Assembly: GCA_963514005.1 (NCBI GenBank)
Contig: OY740823.1
Location: forward strand, 620,001 to 684,000
Source: Raja brachyura
Taxonomy: Eukaryota
Direction: 5' to 3'
DNA length: 64,000 nucleotides
Position 1 is the stretch's first letter, and every line of letters starts with the position of its first letter. Shown one piece after another: positions 2,201 through 51,433 of this stretch. The translations under genes and the position numbers were made by a program. A model generated the notes under the pieces. The model had not been told where the DNA came from. It worked only from the letters and a program-made list of their open reading frames with translations, and did not search any database.

Positions 2201-2386
2201 AGTGAGGGAAGTTACGGAACATTTTGTTAACTATGTACTTGCGCTCCTTTGCTCTGAGACATTGCCCAGCGCCCTGCCTTTTACTATGTGGGTCTTGCCC
2301 TCGTTTGATTTACCAAAATGCACCACCTCGCATTTATCTGCATCATTAACGATTAATCGGCCCAACTGGTCAAGTTTCTGCTGTAG

Positions 2387-4236: not shown

Positions 4237-4584
4237 AGGTCCTTCTATGACGCTAGAGAGCTGATGATATATTTCCAAAGTGATGTGGGACGCGAGAAGT
4301 GTAGGAGCTCCTCTCCCCTGCGTCCACATTCTCGGTCAATGTAGCCGGTAAAAGACGTTGCTTGCGGCCTTAGTAGGTAACAGGTTACATACAGTAAGAG
4401 GTTGTAAGAGTGGACATAAATGACTGCTGTCGGAGGCAGTGTCGGTGTTTGGCTGCTGGATATTGTGGCAGAGAACTGGACTGCTTGTCCTCGTTGTTTG
4501 GCGGTTGCCAGACACACGACACGCAGGAGACGAAAGGTTTCCATTTTTATCCCGCTAACATGACGATGACGTTGTGTTTCCTAG

Positions 4585-4845
4585 ATACCCCCCAGAACAC
4601 GGTGGTCGAGTGGAACTTCAAAGATGCCAACACGACTTACCTCCGTTGTTCCAGTGACGCCAACCCCAGTGTCACTAGATTCTCCTGGTTCAAGGTAACC
4701 CGTGACCTTGAGACTTATCTATGGCAGGCAAGTCAAATTATCACCGTGCATCTTGAGTCGGAAAAGGCAACTACATGCTTCTGCTGCACGGCGACAAACG
4801 CTGTTGGGAGCTCACATTCCGCTTTCGTGCGAGTCCCCAGTCAGC
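4585..4845 (+). CDS. Siglec-like copy A, third Ig (C2) domain exon (261 nt, open)
   Basis: tgtgtttcctag| ... CAG C|gtgagt. Same length and phase as 43254-43514; LRCSSDANPS..FSWFK..CTATNAVG. Confidence 0.88.
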
Positions 4846-6221: not shown

Positions 6222-8400
6222 ACCATGCGAGGGAAGACACAGGGACTGACGAGGTAGGGTCACTGTGGACTGAGTTGAGGAATTGTAAAGGCAAGAAGAC
6301 ACTAATTGGTGTTATTTGCAGACCCCCAAATAGTAGCCCGTGTGCAGCGTGTAAGTTGCAGCAAGAGTAAAAACTGGCATGTGACAAAACTAATGTCCCT
6401 GTGGTGATGGAGGATTTCAATATGCAGGTAGATTGGGAAAATGAGGTTGGTTCAGGACCGCAAGAAAGGCAGTTTGTCGAATGCCTCAATGGATTCTTAG
6501 AGCAGCTTGTAATTGAACCGACCAGAGAAAAGGCAATTCTGGATTTAGTGTAGCCCAATTAACCAGATATGATAAGAAAACTCGAGGTAAAATAACCGCT
6601 TTCAGGTAGTGATCATAATATGATTCGTTTTAAACTTCAATTTAAGAAGGAGAACGTTAAATCAGAAGTGGCAGTGATGCAGTTGAACAAAGGGGAATAT
6701 GATGGCATGAGAGGGGAGCTGGCCAAGGTGGACTGGAAAGGGATCCTAGCAGGAATGACGGTGGAACAGCAATGGCAGGACATTTCTGGGCATAATCAGG
6801 AAGTGCAGGGTCATTTCATTCCAAAAAGGAAGAAAGGTTTTAAGGGGAGTAGGAGGCAACCGTGGCTGACAAGAGAAGTTAGGGATCGAATAAAACTAAA
6901 AGAAAAGATCTATAACACAGCAAACAGTAGCAGGAAGCCAGAGGGTTGGGAAATGTTCATGGGACAACAGAAGGAAACAAAACGGGCAATACGGGCTGAA
7001 AAGATGAACTAGGAGGGAAGCTGGCCAGGAATATAAAGAAGGACAGTAAAAGCGTATTAAGATATGTTAAGGGAAAAAGAGTAGCACAATGAAATGTGGG
7101 TCTCTTGAAGGCAGACACAGGTGAAATTATTATGGGGAACAAGGAAATGGCAGAAGAGTTGACTAGATACTTCGGATCTGTCTTCACTAAGGAAGACACT
7201 AACAATCTCCCAGATGTACTGGAGGACAGAATATCTAAGGGGGCAGAGGAACTGAAATAAATGTTCCTTATGCGAGAAATAGTATTGTGTAGGCTAATGG
7301 GACTGAAGAAAGATAAAACCTCTGGGCCTGATTGTCTGCATCCCAGAGTCCTCAGGGAGGTTGCTCTAGAAATAGTGGACGCATTGGTGATCATTTTCCA
7401 AAGTTCAATAGATTCAGGATCAGTTCCTGTGGATTGGAGGATAGCTAATGTTATCCCACATTTCAAGAAAGGAGCGAGAGAGAAAACGGGAATTACAGAC
7501 CAGTTGCCTGACTTCGCTGGTGGGAAAGATGCTGGAGTCAATTATTAAAGAGGTAATAATGAGGCATTTGGACAGTAGTAAAAGGATTAGTCCAAGTCAA
7601 CATGGATTTATTAAAGGGAAATCATCCTTGAATAATCTTCTGGAATTTTATAAGGATGTGAGAAGTAAAATTGTTGAAGCGGTGCCAGTGGATGTAGTGT
7701 GTCTAGACTTTCAGAAAGCCTTTGATAAGGTCGGGAAAATGGTGACTAAAATTAGAGCACATGGTATTGAGGGTAAGGTGTTGACTTGGATAGAAAATTG
7801 GTTGGCAGACCGGAAGCAAAGAGTAGGTGTGAACGGGTCCTTTTCAGAGTGGCAGGCAATGGCACGTGGAGTGCCGCAAGGCTCGATGTTGGGGCCGCAA
7901 CTGTTTACCATATATATTAATGATTTGGAAGAGGAAATTAGGAGCAACACTAGCACGTTTTTGGATGACACAAAGCTGGGTGGCAGTGTGAACTGTGAAG
8001 AGGATGTTAGGAGGTTGCAGGGTGACCTGGACAGGTTGAGTGTGTGGGCAGATGCTTGGCAGATGCAGTATAATATAGATAAACGTGAGGTTATCCACTT
8101 TGGCGGTAAAAACAAAGGGGCAGATTATTATCTCAATGGGGTTAGGTTAGGGAAGGGGAGGTGCAGCGAGACCTGGGCGTCCTTTTACATCGGTCACTGA
8201 AAGTTGACGTGCAGGTACTGCAAGCAGTGAAGAAAGTTAATCGAATGTTGGCCTTCATAACAGGAGGATTTCAGTGTAGGATTAAAGACGTTCTTCTGCA
8301 GATATATAGGACTCTGTTGAGACCACATCTGGAGTATTGTGTACAGATTTGGTCTCCTAATTTGAGGTAGGAAATCCTTGTGATTGAGGCAGTACAGCGT
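6222..8400 (+). mobile_element. Old CR1 ORF2 (EN-RT) relic in the copy A intron
   Basis: Fragmented ORFs with SDHNMI, QHGF, QGSMLGP and DDTK. Paralogs at 38410-41220 and 31015-32184. Confidence 0.88.
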
Positions 8401-8477
8401 TCTATGTATCTCCGAATGGACATTTGCGTTAATGGAGAACGATTGCATAAACTATTTTTTTCCCCAAGACCTTGCAG

Positions 8478-8710
8478 ATGAAGCGGCCGATCTGTCCTGG
8501 GCGCGAGGCACGACGTGTCCCACCAACGTGACCTGCCGCGGCATTGTGCAGGACATGGCCGGGGACATCCGGGCAGATTACGTTCGCGTCGGTTTGCTGG
8601 TGATCATCACACTGATGGCCGGCGAGTTAACCTGACGATGGAGACTGTGAACCTCTCGGCATCCAACCATCAGGAGCTGGAGGTCCCAATGGTCGATGGG
8701 ATGGGAGACG
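8478..8710 (+). pseudogene. Copy A, disrupted fourth Ig-like exon
   Basis: Splice sites are intact, but relative to copy B it has a 57-nt deletion, a 1-nt frameshift (TGA at 8633-8635) and a 9-nt deletion (300-67=233 nt). Confidence 0.85.
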
Positions 8711-10381
8711 GTAAGAACTGATTGTAAAGATGAACGCGGCGGAATTGGAAGAGGTTGTGGTTGGCGCGAGGAGAATATGTCTAAATGAAGTAGCCTCTTG
8801 CTGTTGCACACAACACACGTAAACCTCGCGCAGCGAGCAAAGCTTCCGCCTTGCGGCTCGACAGACCTGGGTTAGATCCGACATCCGCCGTTGTCTGTGT
8901 GGAGTTTTCGAGTTCTCCGTGTGACTGGGTGGGAGATGGAATACATCACAGCAAAGTGCGCGGTCATGCACTTTCCGAGTGGGAGTAAAGGAGTAGACTA
9001 TTTTCTAAATGAGGAACAGATTCAGTAAAGGGACTTGGGAGAGCTGGTGCAGGATCTCCAAATTGTTAATTTGCAAAACAAATCCGTTGTTAATAAGGGA
9101 ATGCAATGTGTCTCATCTATTTTGAGAGGACTATATATTTTTTCTCAAATTGGTACGTATGCTGAGCCTTTGGGCCGCACATCTGAGGGGAGATGCACGC
9201 GTTCCATAGACGGTTTACGAGAATGATGTTGAGGATGATTGGTGCAAAGTGTGACGAGCGTTCGAAAGCCCTGGGCTTCTATTCGCCTTATATTAGGTCG
9301 AGGTGGGGGGGGGGGGGGGTAATTGAAACTTGCCACATAATGAAAGGCATGAATACAGTGGATATGGGAAAGATGCAGTACAGAAGAGCATGGCCGAAAG
9401 ATAAAATTACGTGACTTGTTAAAGGAGATGAGGACATGTTTATTTAATCAGAAGATGGTGAATCGGAGGAATCTATTGCTGCAAACGGCTGTGGAGGCTG
9501 TCTTTGGGTATTTAAGAAGCGGATGTTGATAGATCCTTGAGTACCAAAAGTGTCAAAGGTTATGGGGAGAAGGCAGGACATTTGGTTTGAGATGGAAAGA
9601 CAGATTAGCCATTATTGAATGACGGGGTAGACTCGTTGGGCCAATTTTGCTTCCATGGCTTAAGAATCAAGAAGGTGTCGATGGTGACGATGTTGATATG
9701 TGTGATGAAATGCGCCACATCCATATCTCCCTGTAGTTTCTTGCTGTCGTGGACGGAATAGTTGGCAAATCAAGTTACGATGCAGCGCATATGATGTTTC
9801 TATAGTGCATATGTTGAAGCTGGTAAGAGACAGAAATTGGCAAGAGCCTGTGATGGAGCAGGTTGGTTAGGATGAGAGACTGTTTCTTTAGATTAGAAGA
9901 GGCAAGTAGATAAATCATTCGGGGTATAGTTTGGGTTACGGTAGGAAATTTATCGATTAGATTTATCAGGGTGTTACCTGAATTTATGATCGTAGGGTTA
10001 TACGGATGAGTTGCATTGGGTGGGAATCATCTTGGGAGTGTGGGAAACAGAGGCGGGGGTCAAATGTAGCCTAGCCACTCAAGTCCTTGCCTTACTTGTA
10101 GTGGAGCACCCAAAAGAGAGAGGTTTTGGTGGTGTAGCGGTAGAGCTGCAGTCTTACGGGGCCATCAACCGGTTTTGATACGGGTACTCTCTGCATCTTC
10201 TCCTCGTTGCCTGTGGATGTTTTCTCTGGGGAACTCCAGTTTCCTCGCACACGCCAGATTAGCTTGGTTTATACATGTAAATGTCCCTAACATGTAGGAT
10301 AGTGTTAGTGTGCGGAGATCGTTCTTCATGGTCCAGCTCTCCTGCACCTTTTTGCCCTCCTGATTTCCTTCTTAACCCTGT

Positions 10382-10645: not shown

Positions 10646-13399
10646 CGAACTATGCACCTCAGTCCTCGAAATTCCACCCAGCCGCCGTCACTGATACCAT
10701 ACAATGATACAATGATATGATACAATTTATTTGTTGTCATTTGAGCCTCATTGAAGTTCAAACGAAATGTTGTTTCTGCAGTCATACAAACAATAAAAAG
10801 AAAAAAAGAGCCAAGACGCAACACAATTTACACAAACATCCATCACAGCGAATGGCCTCCTCACTGTGATGGAGGGCGAAGTCTTATCTCCGACCCACGG
10901 CAGCTTAGTTTTCCTGAGAAGATATTCAATTTCTCTCGTCCTCCAAGCTTCCACACTCCCACCTACCTTGACCTTCATTCCAACAGGAATATACATGCCA
11001 TAAAATTCTTGACATCACACTATAAAAAGCATCACACGACCCGGACGTTCCATTGATCGCAAACAACCCACTCGAGTAAATTTTAACAAGTTTCTGTTGA
11101 ATATCATAAAATATGCCGTTGCCAAATTTCGCAATTTTATCTTGTGGACACGTTAAATAACGTCATTCCTATGTGTTCTAAAGCTGATTGAAGAGCAGTC
11201 AAGCGCAGTCAAGCGTATTATGATAATCCCTGTCCATATTGGAAAATTCGAAATTCCCAACAATGACAATCCTATTATCTCTGCAAATGCCTGCTACCTC
11301 CTGGGATATGGGTTCTTGTAATCCCCGTTGACTATTTGGGGACTTTAATACACCTGCAACAAGGTGATAATTCCCTAATCTGTTTCTAATTCCACCCTTA
11401 CAGTAGCGCCGGAGGGAGCATTAATATTGTCACATCGGACTACTGCCGTGACATACTCATAGACATAAAAACATATATCAGAATTGGAGTCAGAATCAGA
11501 ATCACACATTATTCGCCAAGTATGTTTTGCAACATACAGGAAATATAGATTTCCCGCGTGCAAATAGGACCTTCGACCCAATTTGCCCACCGCTGCCAAC
11601 ATGTCCCATCTACACTAATCCCACATGCTTACGGTTGGCCCATATCCCTCTAAACCTGTCCTATCCATGTACCTGTCTAATTGTTTCTTCAAATTGGCAA
11701 TAGTCCCTGCCTCAACTCCTTTCTCTGGCAGCTCGTTCCATATAGCTACCAACCTTCGTGCGAAAAAGTTACTGACTTTTCTATTTCGGAATCCTATTAA
11801 TTCATTCCCTCTTCACTTTAAATCTAGATCCTCTGGTTCTCGATTCCCGTACACTGGGCAATATATCTACTCGATCTATTCCTCTCAAGATTTCATACGC
11901 ATTTATTAGATCGCTTTTCGTCCTCATGCTCTCAAAGTAATGAGTCACAGCCTGCTTAACCTGTCCCTGTACTCAGATCATCGAGTACTGCCAACATCCG
12001 CGTAAACCCTCTGCGTACCATTTCCAAGTTGACAACATATTTGCTGTAGCATTGTGCACAGAACGGAACACAATACTCTGAATCCGGTCTCCCAACATCT
12101 TAGCAAACTGCTACACGATTTCCAAAGTTATATACTCAATGCTATGCCTAACGTAGGCCTAAGTTCCGAAACCCCTTTTGTCCACCTATCGTCCGGCGAC
12201 GTTACCTTAATGGAACTATGTACCTGCACTCCAAGATGTAAAGCAACGCTCCTTCCACTTCCCCTCTTCATCTATATCTCCATAAGTACCACTATAGGTG
12301 GAGCATTACGCTGCCAGTCTTGGTCTTCCCGTAAACATGTTTTCGTAATGGCTGCCACATCCCAGTCACCCGTGCCTATCCACGTGCCCTGTTTGTCCGC
12401 CTTCCCCGTCAGATCCTTCGAACTAAAATGTATCCAACTCAATCCACCAGTCTTTCCCCGCCATTTGCCGAACTCCTGTCTGTGGTGTCCACTTAAATTT
12501 CACTCATTATCATATAGCCGACCTGCAGCCTCTCACCTGCAACTGTCCTGCATTGCATCCGGAACCCTGGCCATCTACCTTAAACGCACCGATGTAGCAT
12601 TAGTTAGCCTATTTATCATGGTTTTGGTTCAGGTGCAACTCCTCACTTGTAGAAATAACATCCCAGAAATCAATATAAATATCATGTATATTAATGATTT
12701 GGACGATGGGATTGAAGGGTTTGTGGCCAAGTTCTCGGATGATACTAAAATTAATGGAAGGGCAGGTCGGGTAGAGAAAGCAGGGACTCTGCAGAAGTAC
12801 CTGGACAAGTCGGAAGAGTTGGCAACGAAGTGGCAGATAGAATATTGTGTAGCAAAGTGTGGAGATTAGCATCTTGGTGGAAGGAAAAAGTGCGTTGACT
12901 TTTTTTCTTAATGAGGGAGAAACCAGAAATCTGAGGTGCAAAGGAATTTGGGAGTGCAGGTGTAGGATTCCCAAAAAGTTTAAACGGCACTGAACAAAGC
13001 AAACTCAATGCTAAAAAGTATTTCAATAGGGCTTGTATACAAAAATTGGTTTGTAATGCCGATGCCCTGTAAGGCGCTGGGAAGGCCGCATTTGGAATAT
13101 TCTGAGCAATTTTGGGCACAATATCTGAGGAAGGACGTGCTGGCTGCGGAGAGGGCCCTGGTGACGTTTACAATAATGATCCCAGTAGGTTAACCTAGGA
13201 TGAGCGTTTGTCGGCACTGGGCCTGTACTTGCTGGAGAGCTGATTAGTACAGATGTCAGAGGGCAGGCAGGTGAATGGGGCGCGGAGAGAAAGATAAATC
13301 AGCCATGATTGAATGGCGTAGTATAGGCCGAAAGGCCCAATTCTACTATATTACTTATGACATTATGGCAATATGAGAAGTAATTCTAATTGACACAAA

Positions 13400-13800
13400 T
13401 CCCGAATCCCAGCCATGTGCACCAATTTCTCAGCCATGCATTCATCTTTCAGATATTTCTGTTCCCACCCACACAAACACATAGCACTGCGAGTAATCCG
13501 ATATTTACCCTGTATGTCTTGCTTTTGTCTAACTCCCGATACGCATTTCGCAGCACCTCATCACTTTTCCTTTCCAGGTCGTGTGTGCTAGCTTGGGCAA
13601 ATAATCCTGTTTGCCCATCTACTCCCTTGAGAAAGATACGTAGCCGTACTGAGACATCCGGAATCCTGGCCACACGCAGGCAACTTATCTGGAGTATGAA
13701 TTGCCTCCATAGACAATAGGGAGCCTCCTGTTCGCCCCCCATAACTAACGAGTCTCCAGCCACGAAGACTTCCCGCGTGACACACGCTTCCCCACTTCGC
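13400..13800 (-). mobile_element. CR1 ORF1 (SGNH esterase-like) relic; paralog at 63487-63700
   Basis: GDSLV..CL.VARIPDVS..THDL.RK.DEVL..YREL pattern typical of CR1 ORF1. Confidence 0.7.
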
Positions 13801-16800
13801 ATAACGGCCAAGTTCGGAGCCATAGAGCTGACACCCTGAGAAAATTGATCAGATGTTTTTTCCAATGTTGATATTTGTCTTGTGCAATGTTGGTATTTTT
13901 CTGGATTGCACTGGCCCCTCGTCCGTCAGTTTCTTCTTTACCGCAAATATAGAAGAGAGGTATGCATTTAATACCTCTCCAATTTCCCGTGGTTCCGTAC
14001 ACAGGTTCCTTCACAGACCTTTAAGTGGGCCTAGGTGGTACACATACGTTATAAACAATAGGGTAACTGAGGAGACGACAGTACCACTGAAGACAACGGC
14101 GGAAAAATGTACGCCTGGAACCAGAGGTAGTAGGCGTAACATAGGAGTAGATTGTGTAGATATTTAAGAAGGGTAAGGTCAATCTAAGGCGGTATTCTAA
14201 TGAGTGATCATATTTTGAAAGATGTGGTATTTTTTTACAAGAATATTAAGCTGGATGGGTTGCAAGGTCTGATGAGATCTATCCCAAGATATTGTGGGAA
14301 GGAAATTATGCGATTACCGCCAGCTGGCAGAGTATGTCACAGACTCGTAGAGTGATAAAGCGTGAAAACATGCCCTGCTTCCCAGGTAGCCCACACCGGC
14401 CAACATGTCCCAGCAACACTAGCGCCACCTGCCTGCCTTTGTTCCATATCCCACCAAACCTGCCCTATTCAAGTACATGTCCAACTGTGTCTTCAAAGTC
14501 ATGAACGTCCCAACATCAACTACCTCCTCTGGCAGCTTGTTTCATAAACCCACCACCATTTGTGTGAAACGTTCTCCATCAGACTCGTATAAAATATTTC
14601 CCCCTTCAACTTAAACGTATGTCCTCTGGCTCTCGATTCGCCTAGTCAAGGCAAAAAAACTGTGTGCATCTACCCGATCTATTCCTCTCATGATTTTATA
14701 GACCTCTACATCCTACATGCGCGCCAGGGAATAGAATGTTAGCCTGCTGAACCACTCCCTGTAGCGCAGACCCTCTAGTTCTGGCAATATCCTCGCAAAT
14801 CTTCTCTGTACCCTTTCCAGCTTGACAACATATTTCCAATAACTTGGTGCCAAGGACTGAACACAGTACTCTAAATGCGGTCTCACCAACGTCTTATACA
14901 ACTGCAACATAACCTCGAAATATCCATACTCAATACTGATGAAGGCCAATGTACCTGCAACTCAAACTTCAAGGAACCATGCCCATGTACTCCTAGATCC
15001 CTCTGCCCAAGACCACTCCCCAGTGCCCGACCATGCACAGTGTAGGCCCTCCAACGTTCGTCATCCCAAAAACACCTCTCATTTATCTGTCTTAAATTCC
15101 ATCAAACATTACTGAGACCACCTGATCATTCGATCAAGATCCTGCTGCATTTTTTTCGCAACAAACGTGTCTCCATTTGTGAGCAACTAGAGAATGATAT
15201 AGGTACTCATTGTTGTTTCTATGTAAATGAACGTAGGAAGAGAAAGATTACAATGTTACAGACCGCTGAACCAGACGCAAGTAACAGGAAAATTATCGGT
15301 AAAATTATCAGTTCAAATAATGTCTCAAGTCTGCTGAAGTACAAACTATGTAAACTTTAGAAATGGCTTGGTGCGAGGGAATAGGTGTCTTACAATCTTC
15401 CTAGTCTCCCTCTTTTTCAGGTGCAGCGCATTCCAGTTCTACTGGTCACTTTTTCCCCAAACGAGATACCAATGCTCCATGAACAAGAACTCTCCCTCCT
15501 GCACCTGCTCCTCTGCCACACACTCGTTCACCTAATCGTTTTTTCCCCACGCTCACTAGAAGGTGACATAGCAATCCTGCGACTACATTCCAAGAGACAC
15601 TGCACCTCACCTTGTTCCTTAAATCCATATATTCACTCTGCACTCGNNNNNNNNNNNNNNNNNNNNNNNNNNNNNNNNNNNNNNNNNNNNNNNNNNNNNN
15701 NNNNNNNNNNNNNNNNNNNNNNNNNNNNNNNNNNNNNNNNNNNNNNNNNNNNNNNNNNNNNNNNNNNNNNNNNNNNNNNNNNNNNNNNNNNNNNNNNNNN
15801 NNNNNNNNNNNNNNNNNNNNNNNNNNNNNNNNNNNNNNNNNNNNNNNNNNNNNTAGGATAGAGTGAGAACGCGTCAGGGATAGTGGGGACTCGAATAAGA
15901 GAGCAGGAGTGCAGCCCATTGACGTGCACGGGCATTGGTAAATATTCAGAAGGCACGCAATCAGTCAGCGCCGTTGCCAAGATTGACTCGAACATCGTGT
16001 CCTGTTCGCAAACTCGCGGCGTCCGACCTTTCCGTGTCAATAGCTTATGACATCAATTGCAGGTGGAATTTTCCATCCAAGCACAACATATTACATCCCG
16101 AATTTATCAACTGTAGCTCTTCCCTTTCTGTTTCGATTCCAGGAGAAGGTGAGATACGAATTGAATCAGAAGTGTCGCCAATATGATGAATCAAGAATCA
16201 AACTGTCGTATGTGCAGTCAATGGAATAAATACATTCGTTTTTGCAGCAACATACCTGATCTTCAAGCTATACGATAATAGATAATAGATACGATAACTA
16301 AGCAAACAACCAATAATGTAATCATCACAATACAAATGAAATAAACAAAATGAGTGCAACCAAAGTCTCCGACCACCATTTCTCTGAAAGCGTTCCCCCT
16401 CAGATTCCTATTCATTATTTTCCTCTTCGACTTAAACATATGTCCTCTCGTTCTCGATTCACCTACTCTGGACAAGCGACTATGTGCATCTACCCGATCT
16501 ATTGCTCTCATAATTTTATAGACCTCTATGAGATCACCCCTCATGTCCATGAACGCCAGGGAATAAAATCCCAGTCTTCTAAACCCATCCCTGCAGCTCA
16601 GACCCTGTGGTTCTGGCAATATCCTCGTAAATCATCTCTGCACCCTTTCCAGCTTGACAACATCTTTCCAATAACTTGGTGTCAAGAACGGAACACAATC
16701 CTCTAAATGCGGTCTCACCAACGTCTTATACAACTTACGTTAGCTCCATCCATTTTCTGCACATGAAGGGCAATTTACGGTGGCCTATCATAGCTGCAGC

Positions 16801-17737
16801 ATTTGGATTGCGAGAGGAAACGGGAACGCCACGAAGAATCACACGAGGGCACAGGGAGAACGTGCAAACTCCATAGAGACGGCAGTCGAGGTAAGGATCG
16901 AAGCCGAGTCTTTGGCGCTGTGAGGCAGCAACTATACAAGCCTCGCCACTGTGCCGTAGTGTGAAAGAGCCTGATGGTTATCATGGAAACTGGCCCTTTG
17001 GCCTAACGAGCCAACGCCGAACATAGATCGCCTCGTCATATTATTTCTACGCTATCGCACCTTCACGTCGGCTCCCCGCACATTGGAGGCAATTTGTAAA
17101 GACCAGCTTCACGACAAACTCCTGCGGCTTTTGGAAGCGTTCGGAAACCGTGGGACACGGATTAAACGTACGCGGTTTAAGCATTATATGCTCTATTCTG
17201 TACTTGTACGTTATGGACAGCATGATCGTAATAATGTACAATCGGTGTTCTCACTGGATATCAAGCGACCAAAAAAAAAGTGTTTAACAGTACTTCGGTG
17301 AACGTGACAAAACACTAAACTAAACTGAACTGATCTGAACACGGTCAGGATCGAACCCGCTTTTGTGGCGGCGAGAGAGCAGCAACTCTCGCAGCTGCGC
17401 CACGGCACAGCCCCAAGTTAGGTTAAATTAAAATGTGTTGGAGATTAATGTGGAAAACCTACTGGTCCTGCACTTCCAACCTCCCAAGGTGGCCAGATGG
17501 ACGGAAATGCCACTCCCCCCCCCCCCCCCCGGAGTTGGGAACCGCTGGTAATTGCCCGGAGTTGGGAACCGCTCGTTCTCCTTGTCACCGCGTGGGTTTC
17601 CATGTTTGTTCCTGGGAGAACTTGTCGGTATTGTGAAGGAAATAGACGTAAACGTGGGATAACATATAATTAGTGCGAATGAACTAATGATGGTCCATTG
17701 AACCTCGATGGGCTAAAGGGCTTCCCCGTCTATCAAT

Positions 17738-17910
17738 AAACTAAACAGAACAAAACTGAAGGAAACGAAACTAAACTAAACTCAACTAATCCAAACTCAA
17801 CTCCACTCAAGTCAATTCAACGCAACACAATTCACCTCAACTCAACTCAACTCAACTAAACTAAACCAACCTGAACTAAATTAAACCAAACTGAACTAAA
17901 ATAAATTAAT
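17738..17910. repeat. (ACTAA/ACTCA)n array; inverted paralog at 57340-57500
   Basis: Direct reading of the sequence. Confidence 0.88.
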
Positions 17911-18039
17911 CCCTTCATGCATTACTCACTCACGATTCTCCTCGTTTCGTGTTCTCCAAGCAGGCGACATTATAAATGACCATCTCCAGCAGAGGCAGTT
18001 TCTGGTAGTTCTATATTATATATTAATGTATAAATATTA

Positions 18040-20850
18040 TTATATATTAATGATTTGGAAGGGGGAATTAAGAGCAACACTAGCAAGTGTTGCGGATGAC
18101 ACTAATCTGCGTGGCAGTGTGAACTGTGAATGGGATGTAAGGAGGTTGCAGGGTGACCTGGACAGGTTGAATGTGTGGGGAGGTGCGTGGGAGATGCAGT
18201 ATAATATATATAAATTTGAGGTTATCCACTTTGGGGGCAAAAACAAAGGGGCAGATTATTATCTCAATAGGGTAAGGTTAGGTAAGGAAAGTTGGCGCGC
18301 AAGTACAGCAGGCAGTGAAGAAAGCGAATGGAATGTTGGCCTTCATAACAATAGGATTTCAATTTGGTAGTAAATAGGTTATTCTGCAGGTGTATGGGGC
18401 TCTGGTAAGACCACATATGGACTATTGTGTACACTTCGGTCTCCTAATTTGAGGAAGGACATCCTTGTGATTGAGGTCGTCCAGCATAGGTTCACGAGAC
18501 TGATCCATGGGATGGCGGGACTGTCGTATGAGGAAAGATAAAAAATACTGGGCTTGTATTAATTGGAGTATTAAAGTATGAGGGGTGTCTTAAAGAATCA
18601 TTTAAAATTATAAAAAGGTCTGGATAAAGTAGATGCAGGAAATCTATTCCCAATGTTGGGCGAGTCCAGAACCAGGGTACACGGTCTTAGAATAAATTTG
18701 AGAAGGAGAAGGTTAAATCGGAAGTGGCAGTGATGCAGCTGAACAAAAGGGTTTATGAAGGCATGAGTGAGGAGCTGGCCAAGGTAGACTGGGAAGGGAT
18801 ACTAGCAGGAATGACGGTGGAACAGCAATGGCAGGAATGTATTTGCATAATCCGAAAGACACAGGATCATTTCATTCCAAAAAGGAGGAATTCTAAGGTG
18901 AGTAGGAGGCAACCCTGGCTGACAAGAGAAGTTAGGGATAGAATAAAACTTTAAATAAAAGATGTTTAACGCAGCAAAGAGTAGCCGAGGCCAGAGGACT
19001 GGGAACTTTCATAGGACAACAGAAGGAAACAAAATGGGCATACGGGCTGAAAAGATAAAGTACGAATTGAAGCTGGCCAGGAATATAAAAAAGGACTGTA
19101 AAAGCCTCATTAGATATGTTAAGGGAAAAAGAGTAGCAGCGTCAAATGTGGGTCCCTTGAAGGCAGACACGGTGAAATTATTATGGGGATAAATGAAATG
19201 GCAGAAAAGTTACTTCGAATCTGTCTTCACTAAGGAAAACACAAACAATCTCCCCGAAGTACTGGAGGACAGAGGATCTAATGGGGTCGAGGAACTGAAA
19301 GAAAGTTTCATTAGGCGAGAAATAGTATTGGGTAGGCTAATGGGACTAAAGGATGGTAAATCCCCGCGGCCTGATGGACTGCATCCCAGGGTCCTCAGAG
19401 ATGTGGCTCCAGAAACAGTGGACGCATTGGTGATATTTTTCTAATGTTCAATAGATTCAGGATCAGTTCCTGTGGATTGTCGGATACCTAATGATAGCCT
19501 GACTTCGGTGGTGGGAAAGATGCTGGAGTCAATTATTAAAGTGGTAATAATGGGGCATTTGTATAGCAGTAAAAGGATTAGTGCAAGTCCGCATGGATTT
19601 ATGAAAGTAAATCATGCTTGACTAATCTTCTGGAATTTTTTGAGGATGTGACAAGTAAATTGGATGAAAGGGAGCCTGTGGATGTAGTGCATCTAGTCTT
19701 TCGGAACGTGTTTGATTACGCCCCGCACGGGAGACTGGTGATTAAAATTAGACCCCATGGCATTGGGAGTCAAAGCAAAGAGTAGGAGTGAACGGGACCT
19801 TTTCAGAATGGCAGGCAGTGGCGAGTGGAGTGCCTCAAGGCTTGGTGTTGCGGCCGCATCTGTTTGACATATGTATTAATCAATTGGAAGAGGGAATTGG
19901 CAGCACCTCTAGCAAGTTTGCGGATGACACAAAGCTGGGTGGCAGTGTGAACAGTGAAGAGGATGTTAGGAGGTTGCAGGGTGACCTAAACAGGTTGAGT
20001 GGGTGAGCAGATGCGTGGCAGGTGCACTATTATATAGATACGTGTGAGGTTATCCACATTGGTGGCAAAAAACAAGGGACAGCTTATTATCTCAATTCGG
20101 TTAAGTTAGGAAAGGGGGAGGTACAGCGAGACCCGGGTGTCCTTGTACACGGGTCACTGAAAGTTTTCGTGCAGGTGCATCAGGCAGTTGAGAAAGCTAA
20201 TGGAATTTTGGCATTCATAACAAGAGGATTTCAGTATAGAAATAGAGAGGCTCTTCTGCAGTTTTATAGGGGTCTGGTAAGACCACATCTGGAGTATTGC
20301 GTACAGTTTTGGTCTCCTAATTTGAGGAAGGACATCCTTGTGATTGAGGTAGTGTAGCGTAGGTTCACGAGATTGATTTCTGGAATGGCGGGGCTGTCAT
20401 ATGAGGAAAGATTGAAAAGACTAGGCTTGTATTCACTAGAGTGTAAAAGGATGAGGGGGATCTCATAGAAACAAATCCAATTATAAAAGAACTGGAAAGC
20501 TAGATGCAGGAATAATGTTCCCAATGTTGGGCGAGTCCAGAACCAGGGGCCACAATCTTCGAATAAAAAGGGAGGTCATTTAAGACTGAGGTGAAAAAAA
20601 ACGTTTTGGCCCAGCGAGTTGTGAATTTGTGGAATTACCTACCTCAGAGGGCAGTGGAGGCCAAATCACTGGATGGATTTAAGAGAGAGTTAGATAGAGC
20701 TCCAGGGGCTAGTGGAGTCAAAGGATATGGGGAGAATGCAGGCACGGGTTATTGATTGGGGACGATCAGCCATGATCGCAATGAATGGCGTTGCTGGCTA
20801 GAAGGGTCCAACGGCTTCCTCCTGCACCTATTTTCTACTTTTTTTGTTCC
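18040..20850 (+). mobile_element. Two stacked degenerate CR1 fragments (paralog 54750-57200, minus strand)
   Basis: RT and C-terminal motifs in ORFs 18026-20357. Confidence 0.85.
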
Positions 20851-23800
20851 TAGTTCACTGAATTTGCACAGCGATTCTTACAGAATATTGTATTTGCACT
20901 TCCAGTATGATTTCCAAATGGTTTATGTCGTCCATCTCGAAAACTATCAACTTATTAAATATTTCTGAGGTTTCACAGGTTTTGAATCATTCCGGCAACG
21001 ATACACAAATATGGACCGAAGTGACCAAACCTGCAGAATCACATGATCCCGCAGATTCACAGAGACTCGGTGTGAGCTGCAACCCCGACAGCTTTGAAAG
21101 TAAGTAGGACTACCTTCTCTCGAATTTACCGAAATTGCTCACTATTCATATGACAAAAGAATTGGGGGGGGGGGGGGTTGTGGTCTGCTGGTGTGAATGG
21201 GGGGTTACATTTGATTAGTTACCTGCGTTGCTACTGTGTGGGTCTGTGTGAATGCGCGCACACCTTCCAGCTATGTCTTTATGGAAGGTTTGCATGCGTT
21301 TTATGTGCGAGAGCGCCTGTGTATGTGTGCGTTTTTGAATGCGTGTGTGTTATGTATATGCTGTGTTCTGTGTGTTCTCTATAGGCAGTATTGAGTGCAA
21401 GTGTGAGCGCAGGGTGGGGTGGGGTGTGTGTGCATGCCTGGGGGGGGATTTGTACGTATGTGTATGTGTGTATTCAATGATCAGATGATTCAATTATGCT
21501 TTATTGTTCACAAGTGCCTAGGTTCAGCGAAATACTTTGTTTTGCACACAACCCGGTAAAATCGTCAGACACCACGTCAACAGTCATGAAATGTAGTCAC
21601 GTTTCTAGTGCTGACGAAGTTACAAACGATTACGGACCAGTCCTATCTTCTGCCTGCCGCGGCACCTGGTATCAGACTCAATCCCTCCCCCCACACGCTT
21701 CCCCGCCGGATCCCCCCTTCAATCTCGCCGCCCGCCCCCCGCCCCCCCGCCCCCCCCCCCCCCCCCTCCCCCCCATTTTTGATCTCGGCATTGTCGCCTC
21801 CTTGCCAAAATAAAATGTCCATTTGACTCTCTAAAATACATTGGGAAATGTAAACTTTCGACGTTGTTTCTGGTAGAAGTGTTGCAACGGGGCCTCACGC
21901 AGATGTGCAATGCCGTTTTAGAGCAAAATGAATTTGGCTACAAATCCCACAGCAAACCCGAAGCCAAATTCATCACTGCTAAATGTCCAGGAGTCATGTG
22001 GATGGTGAAGTTCAAGATGGGTAGGATAACTAACCGTTCTGGCCCCGGACGATTGAGGCATTTAGTTGGGGGAATGAGTGTGTTGACAGCCAATATCACA
22101 ATTCAAATATGTTTCTTTTTGTGCCGAAATCCTTTTTTTGTCTGATTCGGGAATTTTGTTGAACTTACAGACCCCGAACGGTGATTAAAATCGTCGAGTT
22201 ATACATAACAGGAACATCCCAATTCAGTCCCTCTGATTCGTGCCGAACAGGTTACCTAACTGAGCTGGAAGAGAGACACGAACGGCTCGGTAAACTGAGC
22301 GAGTAAGGCAGCATCTTTGGAGAAAATGAATTTGTGACATTTCGTGTCGAGACTTCTTCAGACTGAGAATCAGGGGAAAGAGAAACGAGATATAGCAGTT
22401 GGTATGGAGATAGAGAACATTTGAATTAAAAATTTGCAAAATGTAACGATGATCAAGGAAAGGTGAAGCCCACAGTGGTCCATTTATATTATCTGCAGAA
22501 AATGCATATTCCAACAGAATCATTGGCTCATGCATCTAGTCCCACCTTACGAAAATGGTGGGGGCGTCTGGAACGCGCTGCCAATGGCAGTATTAGTATG
22601 CAGTATAAAATAGTATGCAGTATGCAGTATAAAATCTGCATATAATGAGATTTTATTATTTGAGTGTTTGGTATTGTATCCATGAATATTCGGATGACTT
22701 CTTATACTTTCTGCTAAAGGCTCGATCACTGGTGCAAATAACAGAGGCGATAGTGCGCACCCCTGCCTATTGCCCCTTGCTAATTGGAATTTCGGGGATA
22801 ACATATTATTAGTCATATAAGTTTAGTATTCTAGCTGTAGGCTTATCGAATAATAATTTTACCCATGTGATAAAGTTATCTCCCATGTTAAATCTTTGAA
22901 AAAATATTGCCATTCTACTTGATCAGAATTTTATTAATATCTTTAGGTAGTGTTAGTAATTCCCCATTGTCTAATTTAATTTTAGTAATTGTATTTACTG
23001 TTTCCCGTTTTTTTCAGTTGGCGTACTAAGAGTTTATGTGGTTTATAACCAAATTCGAATTTTTCTGGTTTTGTAATTTGAAATAATCTTATTATTCTGG
23101 CCGATAAAATTGTATTTAATTCATATTTTAGTATTGTTATCTTATTATGTTTGTCTATAGTTGGTTCTTTGGCATTTTCTAAATCTAATTGTCTAATTTC
23201 TCGTTCTAACTGCAGTTGTTCAGTGTTATTCTTGTTATTTTGGAAAGCTTGATATGAAATTATAGTTCCTCTAATAAATGCCTTAAAAGTTCCCCATAAT
23301 AAGGAAGGCGAAGTGTCTGGTGTATCATTTGTCTCAAAGAAGAATATCATCTGCTGTATTAAATATGTGCAACCTTGTGAGTTGTTTAAGATTTGGGGGC
23401 TAAACCTCCAGAACGATTTCTTATCAGGCATTCCTTCTAATTTTAAGGAAAAAGGTAACGGGGAATGATCAGAAATAATACTATTATGATATTTAGAATT
23501 ATATGTATATGGAATTAATTTCGTATCCACTAAGAAAAAATCAATACGTAAATATGTTTTATGTACCGTTGAATAAAATGAATATTCCCTACCTACTGGG
23601 TTAGCGATCCTCCATACATCTGTTATGTTGGTATTTTTCATGTATGTATTTAGGAATTCACTAGTTTTAGATTTTATGTTAATCCTTTTCTGTTTTGCTG
23701 ATTTATCCAGATATGGATCTAAAACACAATTCAACTCTCCCCCTATTATCACATTTTGATAGTTAAGTTCTGAAATTGTATCCAGAATTTTACTAAAGAA

Positions 23801-23895: not shown

Positions 23896-26800
23896 AACCA
23901 TATAACCATATAACAATTACAGCACGGAAACAGGCCATCTCGGCCCTTCAAGTCCGTGCCGAACAACTTTTTTCCCTTAGTCCCACCTGCCTGCACTAAT
24001 ACCATAACCCTCCATACCCTTCTCATCCATATGCCTATCCAATTTATTTTTAAATGATACCAACGAACCTGCCGCCACCACTTCCACTGGAAGCTCATTC
24101 CACACCGCTACCACTCTCTGAGTAAAGAACTTCCCCCTCATGTTACCCCTAAACCTCTGTCCCTTAATTCTAAAGTCATGTCCTCTTGTTTGAATCTTCC
24201 CTATTCTCAAAGGGAAAAGCTTGTCCACATTAACTCTGTCTATCCCTCTCATCATTTTAAAGACCTCTATCAAGTCCCCCCTTAACCTTCTGCGCTCCAG
24301 AAAATAAAGACCTAACTTATTCAACCTATCTCTGTAACTTAGCTGTTGAAACCCAGGCAACATTCTAGTAAATCTCCTCTGTACCCTCTCTATTTTGTTG
24401 ACATCCTTCCTATAATTGGGCGACCAAAATTGTACACCATACTCCAGATTTGGTCTCACCAACGCCTTGTACAATTTTAACATTACATCCCAGCTTCTAT
24501 ACTCAATGCTCTGATTTATAAAGGCTAGCATACCAAAAGCTTTCTTTACCACCCTATCTATATGAGATTCTACCTTCAAGGAACTATGCACGGTTATTCC
24601 CAGATCCCTCTGTTCAACTGTATTCTTCAATTCCCTACCGTTTACCATGTACGTCCTATTTTGATTTGTCCTGCCAAGGTGTAGCACCTCACATTTATCA
24701 GCATTAAACTCCATCTGCCATCTTTCAGCCCATTTTTCCAACTGGCCTAAATCACTCTGTAGACTTTGGAAATCCTCTTCATTATCCACAACACCCCCTA
24801 TCTTGGTATCATCTGCATACTTACTAATCCAATTTACCACCCCTTCATCCAGATCATTGATGTACATGACAAACAACAAAGGACCCAACACAGATCCTTG
24901 AGGCACCCCACTAGTCACCTGCCTCCAACCCGACAAACAGCCATCCACCATTACCCTCTGGCTTCTCCCATTCAGCCACTGTTGAATCCATCTTGCTATT
25001 CCTGCATTTATACCCAACAGTTGAACCTTCTTAACCAACCTTCCATGAGGAACCTTGTCAAAGGCCTTACTGAAGTCCATATAGACAACATCCACTGCTT
25101 TACCCTCGTCAATTTCCCTAGTAACCTCTTCAAAAAATTCAAGAAGATTAGTCAAACATGACCTTCCAGGCATAAATCCATGTTGACTGTTCCTAATTAG
25201 ACCCTCTTTATCCAGATACTTATATATATTATCTCTAAGTATCTTTTCCATTAATTTGCCCACCACTGAAGTCAAACTAACCGGTCTATAATTGCTAGGT
25301 TTACTTTTAGAACCCTTTTTAAACAATGGAACAACATGCGCAGTACGCCAATCCTCGGGGACTATTCCAGTTTCTAATGACATTTGAAATATTTCTGTCA
25401 TAGCCCCGGCTATTTCTACACTAACTTCCCTCAATGTCCTAGGGAATATCCTGTCAGGACCTGGAGACTTATCCACTTTTATATTTTTCAAAAGTGCCAG
25501 TACTTCTTTTACTTTGAAACTCATAGTATCCATAGCTACTCTACTAGTTTCCCTTACCTCACATAATTCAATATCCTTCTCCTTGGTGAATACCGAAGAA
25601 AATAAATTGTTCAATATCTCCCCCATCTCTTTTGGCTCTGCAGATAGCTGTCCACTCGGTCTCTCCAATGGACCAATTTTATCCCTTGTTATCCTTTTGC
25701 TATTAACATAGCTGTAGAAACCCTTTGGATTTACTTTCACCTTACTTGCCAAAGCAACCTCATATCTTCTTTTAGCTTTTCTAATTTCTTTCTTTAGATT
25801 CTTTTTACATTCCTTATACTCAAGCACCTCATTTACTTCATGCTGCCTATAATTATTGTAGATCTCCCTCTTTTTCCGAACAAGATGTCCAATTTCCCTT
25901 GAAAACCAGGGCTCTTTCCAATTTTTACTGGTTCCTTTCAACCGAACAGGAACATAAAGATTCTGTACTCTTAAAATTTCCCCTTTAAATGTCCTCCATT
26001 TCTCCTCTACATCTTTCCCATAAAACAAAATGTCCCAGTTAACTCCTTTTAAATCATCTCGCATCTCGTTAAAGTTAGCCTTTCTCCAATCAAAAATCTC
26101 AACCCTAGGCCCAGTTCTGTCCTTCTCCATAATTATATTGAAACTAATGGTATTGTGATCACTGGACCCGAAGTGCTCCCCTACGCATACCTCCGCCACC
26201 TGTCCCGTCTCATTTCCTAACAGGAGGTCCAGCACTGCCCCTCCTCTAGTAGGCACCTCTATGTATTGCTGCAAAAAACTATCCTGCACAGATTTTACAA
26301 ACTCCAAACCATCCAGCCCATTTACAGAATGTGTTTCCCAGTCTATGTGTGGAAAGTTGAAATCTCCCACAATCACTACCTTGTGCTTACTACTAATATC
26401 TGCTATCTCTTTACATATTTGCTCTTCCAATTCTCGTTCCCCATTTGGCGGTCTATAATATACCCCTATAAGTGTTGCTACACCTTTCGCACTTCTAAGT
26501 TCCACCCAAATAGCCTCCCTAGATGAGCCCTCCAATCTATCCTGCCAAAGCACTGCTGTAATATCTTCCCTGACTAGCAATGCAACACCTCCACCTCTTG
26601 CCCCTCCAATTCTATCACACCTGAAGCAACGAAATCCTGGAATATTTAGTTTCCAATCACAGCCCTCCTGCAACCATGTTTCACTGATCGCCACAACATC
26701 ATACTTCCAGGTGTCTATCCAGACTCTAAGCTCATCCACCTTTCTTATAATGCTCCTAGCATTAAAATATGCACATTTAAGAAACCCCCCATCTCTTATT

Positions 26801-26954
26801 CTCTGTTTATTTCCTTTTTTCTTTCTCCTCTTGTGTCCGAGTGCTTCCCTTTTCTGCTTCCTGCCTCCCATTCTGTCTACTAGCTTTTGCTATTTGCATC
26901 CCTCGCCCCAACCATTCTAGTTTAAAGTCTCCCCAGTGGCCTTTGCAAATTTCC
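23896..26954 (-). mobile_element. Young 5'-truncated CR1-clade LINE inserted into L1 ORF2
   Basis: TSD ctttat (23890-5 / 26955-60), (ATATGGTT)n 3' tail, the last codons of ORF1, and a complete ORF2. Confidence 0.95.
23977..26871 (-). CDS. CR1 ORF2: APE endonuclease plus reverse transcriptase, 964 aa, uninterrupted
   Basis: YFNARS, ISETWL, GDFN and SSDH (EN motifs); QGSVLGP and YADD (RT motifs). Confidence 0.95.
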   Translation of the reverse strand: MGGRKQKREALGHKRRKKKGNKQRIRDGGFLKCAYFNARSIIRKVDELRVWIDTWKYDVVAISETWLQEGCDWKLNIPGFRCFRCDRIGGARGGGVALLVREDITAVLWQDRLEGSSREAIWVELRSAKGVATLIGVYYRPPNGERELEEQICKEIADISSKHKVVIVGDFNFPHIDWETHSVNGLDGLEFVKSVQDSFLQQYIEVPTRGGAVLDLLLGNETGQVAEVCVGEHFGSSDHNTISFNIIMEKDRTGPRVEIFDWRKANFNEMRDDLKGVNWDILFYGKDVEEKWRTFKGEILRVQNLYVPVRLKGTSKNWKEPWFSREIGHLVRKKREIYNNYRQHEVNEVLEYKECKKNLKKEIRKAKRRYEVALASKVKVNPKGFYSYVNSKRITRDKIGPLERPSGQLSAEPKEMGEILNNLFSSVFTKEKDIELCEVRETSRVAMDTMSFKVKEVLALLKNIKVDKSPGPDRIFPRTLREVSVEIAGAMTEIFQMSLETGIVPEDWRTAHVVPLFKKGSKSKPSNYRPVSLTSVVGKLMEKILRDNIYKYLDKEGLIRNSQHGFMPGRSCLTNLLEFFEEVTREIDEGKAVDVVYMDFSKAFDKVPHGRLVKKVQLLGINAGIARWIQQWLNGRSQRVMVDGCLSGWRQVTSGVPQGSVLGPLLFVMYINDLDEGVVNWISKYADDTKIGGVVDNEEDFQSLQSDLGQLEKWAERWQMEFNADKCEVLHLGRTNQNRTYMVNGRELKNTVEQRDLGITVHSSLKVESHIDRVVKKAFGMLAFINQSIEYRSWDVMLKLYKALVRPNLEYGVQFWSPNYRKDVNKIERVQRRFTRMLPGFQQLSYRDRLNKLGLYFLERRRLRGDLIEVFKMMRGIDRVNVDKLFPLRIGKIQTRGHDFRIKGQRFRGNMRGKFFTQRVVAVWNELPVEVVAAGSLVSFKNKLDRHMDEKGMEGYGISAGRWD

Positions 26955-38041: not shown

Positions 38042-38341
38042 CGTCTCCCGTCCGATCGACTACCCGGACCTCCAGTTCCGCCCGCCACTGAGTGTTAGAT
38101 GCCGAGAGGTTCACAGTCTCCATCGTCAGGTTTGCCCCGCGGACGATCAGTCTGAGGAACACCCGCGATCCGACGCGAAGGCTTTCTGCCTGAACGTCCC
38201 CGGCCGTGTCCGTCATCGTGGCCGTCCGGTTCAGGAATCCCCATGTGACGTTGACGGGGGAGTTGGATTGCACAATGCCGCGGCAGTTCACGTTGGTGGG
38301 ATACCTCGAGCATCGCGCCCAGGACATACCGGCCGCTTCAT
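38042..38341 (-). CDS. Copy B, fourth Ig-like exon resembling MAG domain 5 (300 nt)
   Basis: gaccttacag| ... GAC G|gtaaga, phase 1-1 and open. CSRYPTNVNCRGIVQSNSPVNVTW..NRT resembles MAG d5 (CAAARDTVQCLCVVKSNP..RNVTV). A paralogous exon lies at 8478-8710. Confidence 0.82.
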
Positions 38342-38409
38342 CTGTAAGGTCTTGGGGGAAAAAACGAATTTATACAATCGTCCACCATTAATGCAAATGT
38401 CCATTCAAA

Positions 38410-42321: not shown

Positions 42322-43253
42322 TACAATCGTTGAAGAAGTGTCCCGACCCGAAACGTCGGTTATCCTTTCTCCAAATATACTGCCGGATCTGTTCAGTTAG
42401 ATCAACCAATAAACATGTTGTTTGTGAGGTCAATTGGACGATGTTGGTTGGCTCCGATGCTTAAATGAGTGGTGTAATCTGGCCGTAATTTTACAATAGG
42501 GATATGGAACAAAGAACCAGGCCATTGGGCCGAGCAAACGCATACCGACCATCAATTGCACATGTACGCGAATTACAATTTAATTTGCTTACATTTCCAT
42601 CAAGGGCGCAGATCCTGCTACTCATTCATCATCTAGTGGAAACCTAACCGTTGATGGGGATGTGGAATAAAATGAATTGAGCAATGATCAGTGTACAATC
42701 CGAGGTTTGATGTTAGGTGTGGTGCGTCAAAGCGCCTGTATCTGTGCTGTATTGGTCCATGGCAATCCTGATCAATGACCCATATCTCTTCTCCACAGAT
42801 GTTCCCTGACCCGTTCATTTACCCTTGTATGTTGTGTCTATCTGCTGAACGATCAGAATGGCATTAAGGAATATTGGTTCTTTACAATCATGGGTATGAC
42901 ATGGTAAACTAAAGTGTCCGAATGATATCGCTCTGTGTCTAAGTATTGTTACGAATCGATGTGGTTTGTTTGAGTTTTATTAACAGTTAATGGGAGCGGT
43001 AGGTGGAGCAATGTGTGGAGTTGGACCTCATATTAAAACCGGTATCGGGCGGAATAATAGAAACGGCTCCAGTGAACGTTTGGGTTCCTTCTGTACTTGC
43101 GTCAAGTTTTTTCAAGGCAATCATTGTGAGGAGTTAGTGGGTCAAACAGGTAGATTTTTAGCAAACGCGGAAATAGACATTTATCGGAGGAAGTCCTCAG
43201 CTCAGATACCAAGCAGCCGATGTCTCGGTCATCCGATCACAACAAATACTCAC

Positions 43254-43514
43254 GCTGACTGACGACTCGCACGGGCGCGGAACGTAAGCTCCCAAGAATG
43301 TTTCTCGCCACGCAGCTGTAGGATGTAGTTGCCTTTTCCGACTCAAGGTGAACGGTGATAATTTGACGTTCCCACCTTAGATCAGTCTCAACGCCACGGG
43401 TGACCTTGAACCAGGAGAAACTAGTTGCACTGGGGTTGGCGTCACTGGAACAACGCAGAGCAATCGTGTTGGCTTCTCTGAAGACCCACTCGACCACCGT
43501 GATCTCGGGGGAAT
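43254..43514 (-). CDS. Copy B, third Ig (C2) domain exon (261 nt)
   Basis: tgtgtttccaag| ... CAG C|gtgagt. YSPEIT..LRCSSDANPS..FSWFK..YSCVARNILG is a C2-set signature. Confidence 0.92.
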
Positions 43515-47228: not shown

Positions 47229-47519
47229 ATTTTACATCCAGGGTAACGGAGTTTTCCAGTCTGTGACTCGTATCAAAGTAGTCAACCGTACAACGAACCG
47301 TTTCCCCGTGATGAGAGGCGAAAGGAATAAAAGACAAGACAGTGGTAATTTCTCCGCTCGTTTCCTCCCCAAGCGCATGGCGGATGGAATATGGCAGCTC
47401 ACTCCAGGTGAGAGATGGGCGTTGATCGGGACATGTGTAGAGGGCTTTGCAGAGGATATTCACCGGGATCCCCTCGATGAGAATTTCCGGGATTAAAATC
47501 TCCGGTTTTTCAGGCATAT
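47229..47519 (-). CDS. Copy B, second Ig (C2-type) domain exon (291 nt)
   Basis: tttccaatctccag| ... AAA T|gtaagt. DMPEKPEILIP..ILCKALYTCPDQRPSLTW..LSFIPFASHHGETVRC..SVTLDVK resembles Siglec/MAG domain 2, including the extra Cys (CP) for the V-d2 interdomain disulfide. Confidence 0.92.
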
Positions 47520-48602: not shown

Positions 48603-48959
48603 CCAGAACGTGCAGTTGGACGGGGGGCAAGTAGGTGTAAGTATCAAATCCGTCCAATTCCACGTAAAAATAGTACACATCAGAGTCTTCGTGTCTGAGG
48701 TGATTGATCCTCAGCGAGCAGTCTTTCTCTTCCAGGTTACCAACGATTTCAGCCCGCCCTTTGAACGCGGCCATCCCGTAGTTGGGATCTCTGGAGTAAG
48801 ACACTGTGTACTTCCAGTAGTACCAGTACTTGAACCACGCTCCGTGGATAGCGGTGTAAGGATGCGAGGGGAAGTCGAACGTACAGGGTATCACCACGCA
48901 AGACCTCCTGATGGCACGAAGGGGCCGAGCCCGCATGGTCCATTCACCAGCCTGCACGC
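48603..48959 (-). CDS. Siglec/MAG-like gene copy B, N-terminal V-set Ig domain exon (357 nt)
   Basis: ccattccag| ... CTG G|gtgagg, phase 1-1. SCVVIPCTFDFP..HGAWF..FKGRAEIVGNLEEKDCSLRI..DSDVYYFYVE matches the Siglec/MAG V domain: B- and E-strand Cys, no F-strand Cys. Confidence 0.93.
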
Positions 48960-51315: not shown

Positions 51316-51355
51316 CTTGGAGAAGTAACAAGGGGAAGCAATATTGCCAGATCAT
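51316..51355 (-). CDS. Siglec/MAG-like gene copy B, signal-peptide exon (MIWQYCFPLLLLQ-G; full exon 51397-51316)
   Basis: Acceptor tttttttttacag, ATG with A at -3, hydrophobic leader, phase-1 donor AAG|gtaaaa. Joins in frame to the V exon to give MIWQYCFPLLLLQGVQA|GEW. Confidence 0.85.
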
Positions 51356-51433
51356 TGTGTTTTCTTGAATATATCGTCCGTTTACGGTTATCGGGATCTG
51401 TAAAAAAAAGAACACTCAAATAATATCACTATG

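Follow-up and report, generated by a model that had tools for sequence, protein, structure and literature searches.

The window analysed here, a stretch of 64,000 nucleotides from Raja brachyura (contig OY740823.1, positions 620,001 to 684,000), carries a Siglec-type gene with a confirmed tyrosine at the position of the canonical sialic-acid-binding arginine, and this tyrosine is shared by a whole clade of shark and ray proteins. On balance, we lean towards the reading that this clade (hereafter the Tyr clade) is an old and conserved elasmobranch branch of the Siglecs, whose V domain likely works without the sialic-acid salt bridge and likely uses an aromatic face to hold a ligand that is uncharged and probably lipid-like, and that the copy in the window is likely secreted. 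A switch of ligand had already been proposed in the first-pass annotation of this DNA; it is the best reading of the present data and is supported by the conserved V domain and the invariant tyrosine.

Tyrosine at the canonical arginine position

Sequence alignment and structure model both place the tyrosine at the site of the essential F-strand arginine of Siglecs, as the annotation had stated. In the phmmer alignment against PDB entries, YYFY pairs with YYFR of MAG and YNFR of sialoadhesin with no gap close by, and the window tyrosine falls onto Arg118 of MAG. The AlphaFold model of the V domain (pLDDT 91.7), in which residue 95 lies within a strand spanning residues 90–99, is close to MAG (Z 19.9, rmsd 1.2 A) and sialoadhesin (Z 19.7; TM 0.92 in a structure comparison in which MAG and sialoadhesin ranged over TM 0.91–0.92). 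Moreover, Pfam V-set and Ig_CD22 both reach the cut-off on this domain, and its best PDB matches, by sequence and by fold alike, are Siglecs only. A misalignment by one residue could be ruled out, as Phe94 is invariant over 58 rows and the flanks align.

DVYYFYVE is encoded by 24 bases of the minus strand (48681-48658). Whichever arginine codon is taken as the starting point, at least two substitutions lead to TAC, so that the codon comparison upholds the earlier count. The four closest V domains of the genome (82–100% identity), the window copy among them, all have tyrosine, encoded three times by TAC and once by TAT. Sequencing error is excluded because TAC occurs in two and TAT in one of the three remaining paralogs; tyrosine is also found in the relatives, and contigs from four public runs agree. 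Among the contigs listed over the codon, those of runs X1 (which may be the source sample of the assembly), X3 and X6 showed 0, 2 and 1 differences across 183, 168 and 144 bases, and none of the differences in the best 40 of 74 rows falls inside the tyrosine codon.

Gene structure, copies and membrane anchor

Five minus-strand exons, coding for a signal peptide, the V domain and three more Ig domains, make up the window gene (Table 1); all are open and have AG/GT phase-1 junctions, with boundaries set by matches to relatives. The open frame and the Siglec-type cysteines reported earlier hold up: the three V cysteines and the extra cysteine of domain 2 are present, and C17, C22, C77 and F94 are invariant throughout the clade. 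This is the unusual arrangement of Siglecs, in which a B-E pair lies within one sheet, Phe takes the place of the common F-strand cysteine and a spare cysteine serves the bond between V and domain 2. From these residues we infer the disulfides of the V domain and domain 2; in MAG, a C37–C165 bond is described to tie the two domains together (PMC5150538).

Table 1. Features of the window gene and of its inverted paralog (positions within the window)
Feature	Position	Strand	Basis or remark
Signal-peptide exon, ATG at 51355, phase-1 donor	51316..51397	-	First 13 codons match residues of Amblyraja P0002
V-set Ig exon, Siglec type; Cys17, Cys22, Cys77	48603..48959	-	Pfam, PDB alignment, AlphaFold model
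WFKYWYYWKY, C strand and C-C' loop; Y41, W42, W45, K46, Y47 invariant	48808..48837	-	27/27 clade V domains
Tyr95 of the V domain, strand F, canonical sialic-acid-binding Arg position	TAC 48664..48666	-	Alignment, paralogs, clade V domains
Domain 2 exon, C2 type, extra Cys that in Siglecs pairs with the V domain	47229..47519	-	Relatives' matches
Domain 3 exon, C2 type	43254..43514	-	Relatives' matches
Candidate polyA signal AATAAA, ~260 bases past the domain-3 read-through stop	42976..42981	-	Kept in three recent copies; weak evidence
Domain 4 exon, membrane-proximal type, open; both canonical Ig cysteines replaced	38042..38350	-	Relatives' matches
Domain 3 exon, inverted paralog L003	4563..4856	+	V exon ~3 kb before the window
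Domain 4 exon, inverted paralog L003; deletion and frameshift	8465..8712	+	Relatives' matches

Reading through the domain-3 donor yields REYLL followed by a stop (TGA 43239-43237), and the Amblyraja model P0170 also terminates in REYLL. Retention of the candidate polyA signal counts for little because the flanking DNA is ~85–87% alike among the copies. The nearest named proteins to the window V domain are from skates (86% identity); the ESM Atlas returned only generic Siglec/MAG/CD22-like clusters for the homologue P0002, and a search for short-protein homologues gave no candidates.

The two genes of the window are tail-to-tail inverted duplicates (1-8996 on the plus strand versus 45857-37742 on the minus strand, 76–92% alike in the main blocks), with homology stopping ~300 bases past domain 4. 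In this domain the recent copies have lost both cysteines (window gene) or are frameshifted (L003), and domain 4 of the third copy, L002, was not found in the search. Elsewhere in the window, an inverted duplicate of the upstream region (13102-22594, plus strand, versus 64000-52193, minus strand) leaves off ~800 bases before reaching the signal-peptide exon and contains no Ig exon, and a 970-codon open frame (23980-26889, minus strand) resembles a LINE endonuclease/reverse transcriptase and is possibly a young insertion.

Hydropathy scan, tblastn and blastn revealed no transmembrane or tail exon for the window gene in C47:600-724 kb, whereas identical searches recover both for the fourth paralog, L004, ~400 kb off. 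L004 codes for a complete receptor, whose transmembrane segment is uncharged and whose tail reads DIYENY...SVYANV, and similar paired Y-x-N tails terminate several shark and ray members; we take the paired tyrosines to be Grb2-type and ITIM-like motifs. Within the clade, 19 of 29 proteins have a transmembrane segment at the hydropathy cut-off, and the Lys/Arg of activating, DAP12-coupled Siglecs is absent from the transmembrane core of L004 and of the other clade segments examined. Among the RefSeq models of Amblyraja and Leucoraja, all five full-length cluster mates as well as P0002 comprise three domains and no transmembrane segment; the Rhinoraja model P0003 has one, and its tail, used as a query, found no match genome-wide. 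Lacking a detectable membrane anchor, the window copy is likely secreted, with the reservation that a transmembrane exon may be distant or may have been missed.

Distribution and phylogeny of the Tyr clade

Searching the genome for the V domain gave 36 matches; among the 30 examined, the four closest have tyrosine and the other 26 of 26 have arginine. Protein searches returned 23 relatives at 62–86% identity, all from sharks and rays and all with tyrosine, with the next matches at no more than 43%. When cluster members were added and P0021 (partial V domain) and P0172 (fragment) left out, the resulting set of 33 rows contained 27 distinct clade V domains, every one with tyrosine, from 8 shark genera and 7 batoid genera plus the Raja brachyura genome. 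The clade is supported at 100/100 in both the V and the V+D2 tree and sits on a long stem branch (0.64–0.83). Inside it, the V+D2 tree parts batoids from sharks; as both carry tyrosine, the change is older than their split, ~270–300 million years ago.

Across 306 fish Siglec-like V domains, the residue at the arginine site was Arg in 193, a gap in 32, Tyr in 26 (23 of them in the clade) and another residue in 55; loss of the arginine as such is common in this wider match list. No holocephalan or bony-fish member of the clade was among the matches of the protein searches run. Database names of clade members are inconsistent, ranging over MAG-like, sialoadhesin-like, CD22-like and Siglec-5/10/13/14. 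In six shark models (P0007, P0009, P0011, P0012, P0017, and P0023), a Tyr-type V-D2 unit is joined to domains or tails resembling those of the arginine-bearing family, which suggests exon shuffling or fusion of gene models. The lamniform models P0010 and P0013 (Carcharodon, Cetorhinus) have domain 3 in tandem, with up to about eight repeats.

Selective constraint on family and window copy

In the Tyr family, constraint is stronger on the V domain than on domains 2 and 3. Shark-versus-batoid identity amounts to 66% for V, 55% for domain 2 and 47% for domain 3 (56 pairs), the last value being low partly because the third domains of some sharks are non-equivalent. With one shark, Heptranchias, as the yardstick against the Raja brachyura genome, identity in the Tyr family is 68–75% for V and 52–59% for domain 2, versus 51–62% (21 loci) and 58–64% (17 loci) in the arginine-bearing family; five more distant arginine loci (30–32%) form another group and stand outside this comparison. 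Between the window gene and L004, dN/dS is 0.19 for V, 0.33 for domain 2 and 0.45 for domain 3.

This pattern bears on the idea, also raised in the first-pass annotation, that the arginine was given up to evade a sialic-acid-mimicking pathogen, a possibility that we consider very unlikely. Primate Siglec-XII, -5, -14 and -17 have lost the arginine as well, with pathogen pressure proposed as the cause, albeit unproven (PMC6288428, PMC7379906), and the long stem would leave room for such an escape when the clade arose. Escape predicts, however, a variable or decaying site, and the tyrosine is invariant, in two different codons. For the window gene the claim is unsupported because the tyrosine is fixed in 15 shark and ray genera and V is the most conserved domain; as the force maintaining the tyrosine, escape is already largely refuted.

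That the gene is functional, as stated earlier, is firm for the family and less firm for the window copy, in view of the lacking transmembrane exon and a dN/dS of about 1 among recent copies. By these estimates the Tyr family is constrained and the recent skate copies less clearly so: dN/dS among the three of them is 0.6–2.0 (on 4–12 synonymous changes per comparison), and their fourth domain is decaying or missing, both in line with relaxed selection. The same observations would suit a functional family in which the window copy, a truncated duplicate, is turning into a pseudogene and has simply inherited its tyrosine. We regard this as unlikely, considering the five open exons with canonical phase-1 splice sites and the similar anchor-less models in two further skate genera. 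Furthermore, V to domain 3 is open in all three recent copies, which is improbable under neutrality (probability 0.003–0.04 in a simulation of substitutions only).

Putative ligand face and proposed mechanism

Invariant in 27/27 clade V domains are Y41, W42, W45, K46, Y47, Y51, Y57, M59 and Y95, which include a Y-W-x-x-W-K-Y motif at the C-C' loop, and likewise W3 and R65. R65 is invariant also in MAG and the arginine-bearing family (the MAG comparison covers 6 of 10 rows), and is presumably a structural residue of the Ig fold. Residues 93–107 contain no conserved Arg/Lys, and at the F-G turn positions 97 and 99 are acidic in 25/27 and 26/27 domains, respectively. The position of MAG Y127 is occupied by Tyr in 11/27 and by His in 16/27, with Tyr104 in the window copy. 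W42-x-x-W45 matches the WxxW consensus for C-mannosylation, which has been described for the C-mannosylated W22 of MAG (PMC5150538); it lies in the C-C' loop in the Tyr clade and at the N-terminus in MAG.

In MAG, the C-C' loop together with strands F and G is reported to form the binding site, and R118A to abolish ganglioside binding (PMC5150538). Considering this role of the arginine in MAG and other Siglecs, together with the acidic F-G turn and the lack of a conserved basic residue nearby, canonical sialoside binding would be lost in the Tyr clade. The invariant aromatic residues would ring the old pocket, judging by the alignment to MAG. With tyrosine in 27/27 domains, the clade is Siglec-derived and not a canonical Siglec lectin.

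For the ligand, Siglec-6 offers the best precedent. Its Trp and Lys are described to engage the bilayer, the canonical arginine being partly dispensable (PMC12953582, PMC10122656): R122A retains ~75% of liposome binding, W127A nearly none (PMC12953582), and R92 matters for this binding (PMC10122656). By analogy with this Lys-Trp membrane insertion, the Tyr clade could have a neutral glycolipid or a membrane lipid as its ligand; its anchored form would signal via the YxN and ITIM-like tail tyrosines, and the skate copies might serve as soluble binders or decoys for that ligand. The analogy is loose because the Lys-Trp pair of Siglec-6 sits on another loop, after strand F.

The earlier statement that loss of the arginine abolishes binding is overstated: Siglec-6 and, reportedly, MAG and Siglec-11 are published exceptions (PMC12953582). 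Contact with sialic acid is likewise conceivable in the Tyr clade, because Siglec-6 binds gangliosides without the arginine and because R65 and K46 persist in the clade, together with an aromatic residue or His at the Y127 site of MAG. Sialylated glycolipids might then be bound non-canonically, a mode for which the Siglec-6 papers leave room, with K46 or R65 supplying the charge and the Trp/Tyr loop anchoring on the membrane as in Siglec-6. The Siglec-6 mutants and the invariance of W3, K46 and R65 agree with such a mode, to which we nevertheless assign a minor chance: R65 is shared with MAG and the arginine-bearing family, Siglec-6 needs its arginine for the free sugar, and the bulky tyrosine together with the acidic residues 97 and 99 would disfavour a carboxylate.

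Relation to MAG

In the V+D2 tree, the Tyr clade is sister to MAG at 92/83, and it is never nested inside MAG. One could accordingly regard it as what corresponds to MAG (Siglec-4) in elasmobranchs, a sister or counterpart whose ligand chemistry changed in sharks and rays, an interpretation that we rate as quite improbable. It finds some agreement in a FastTree V tree (0.77) and in an evolution that is slow and species-tree-like; the support is, however, under the mark of the tree tool, and the V-only ML tree is unresolved. In BLAST, the Tyr and arginine-bearing families score equally well against MAG (~30%), and domain count, domain-3 type and tail are unlike those of MAG.

Searches for MAG itself also enter here. 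No MAG orthologue was found in the Raja brachyura genome with sturgeon or rodent MAG queries: the best V match reached 37–38%, and no MAG-like V exon exceeded 38% identity in three queries among the candidates scored (for two of them the best 70 of 465 and the best 59 of 316). Similarly, no named chondrichthyan was among the best 120 of 162 MAG matches, three of which have no species name. By level of identity, the Tyr clade falls outside the MAG range: V+D2 identity to sturgeon MAG is 27–33%, under the 46–74% of bony-vertebrate (non-acipenseriform) MAGs among the matches listed. The gene with the best V match to MAG, on C11, was ruled out as well, its other exons being 21–31% identical. This Siglec-like gene (L045; C11:59,923,000-59,940,300, minus strand) keeps the F-strand arginine, has no spare V cysteine and is unlinked to the other clusters. 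MAG is syntenic with the USF2/CD22 locus, and a fused USF2-MAG model (P0286) agrees with the USF2 linkage; a USF2 fragment as query gave no match in the Raja brachyura genome.

Pushed further, sharks and rays would have no canonical MAG, and its sister, the Tyr clade, would have swapped the salt bridge for a Trp/Tyr/Lys membrane face, possibly C-mannosylated, before the shark-ray split, and secreted decoys would be a later addition in skates. We give this scenario a small chance. If true, it would constitute a long-lived, conserved, sialic-acid-independent Siglec branch bearing on the origin of ganglioside binding by MAG. Apart from this scenario, the fruitless search for MAG in the Raja brachyura genome offers a lead on how myelin evolved.

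Comparison with known Siglecs

The V domains of MAG/Siglec-4 and sialoadhesin/Siglec-1 share fold, cysteine pattern and A-strand Trp with the Tyr clade, as well as the G-strand aromatic residue with the window copy, and the membrane-proximal domain of complete clade members likewise has an additional pair of cysteines. In contrast to both, the clade has Tyr for Arg and an aromatic Y-W-x-x-W-K-Y loop at ~30% identity, and for the window copy no membrane anchor was found. Siglec-6, whose binding leans on Trp and Lys rather than on the canonical arginine, would be a functional parallel if the Tyr clade binds lipid; it differs in that it retains the arginine, requires glycolipids to carry sialic acid and has its Lys-Trp pair on a different loop.

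Within elasmobranchs, the arginine-bearing family (C36, C50, C51) has the same V-C2 layout and adjoins a Tyr gene in at least one shark model (P0001). It differs in having arginine in 21/21 loci examined, many copies, a V domain no more conserved than domain 2 and 28–35% identity to the window V domain. At least 21 arginine-bearing Siglec-like V exons lie in large clusters (C36, C50, C51, and C1482), on contigs other than those of the Tyr genes.

Our literature search, with subscription reviews and supplements outside its scope, found no description of the Tyr clade; by term search, sharks are not mentioned in PMC7226832 and PMC13358205, and the accessible parts of PMC7916940 and PMC13262535 contain nothing on elasmobranch Siglecs or MAG. 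Primate Siglecs offer cases in which the canonical arginine is likewise replaced in an otherwise Siglec-type protein, e.g., human Siglec-XII (R122C) and SIGLEC17 (R to W), and Siglec-5/14 of great apes (R to H) (PMC6288428, PMC7379906), whereas Arg to Tyr is reported once, in one orangutan SIGLEC14 (PMC7379906).

These primate losses are recent, often polymorphic or pseudogene-linked, and published losses of the Siglec arginine have mostly been read as loss of function. The Tyr clade is the opposite, with the tyrosine fixed, the V domain under purifying selection and the ligand face most conserved. It consequently offers a testable case of a Siglec scaffold that may have been re-used for another ligand, with candidate residues named, and in skates it would add a paired membrane and (likely) secreted arrangement to the picture of the Siglec family.
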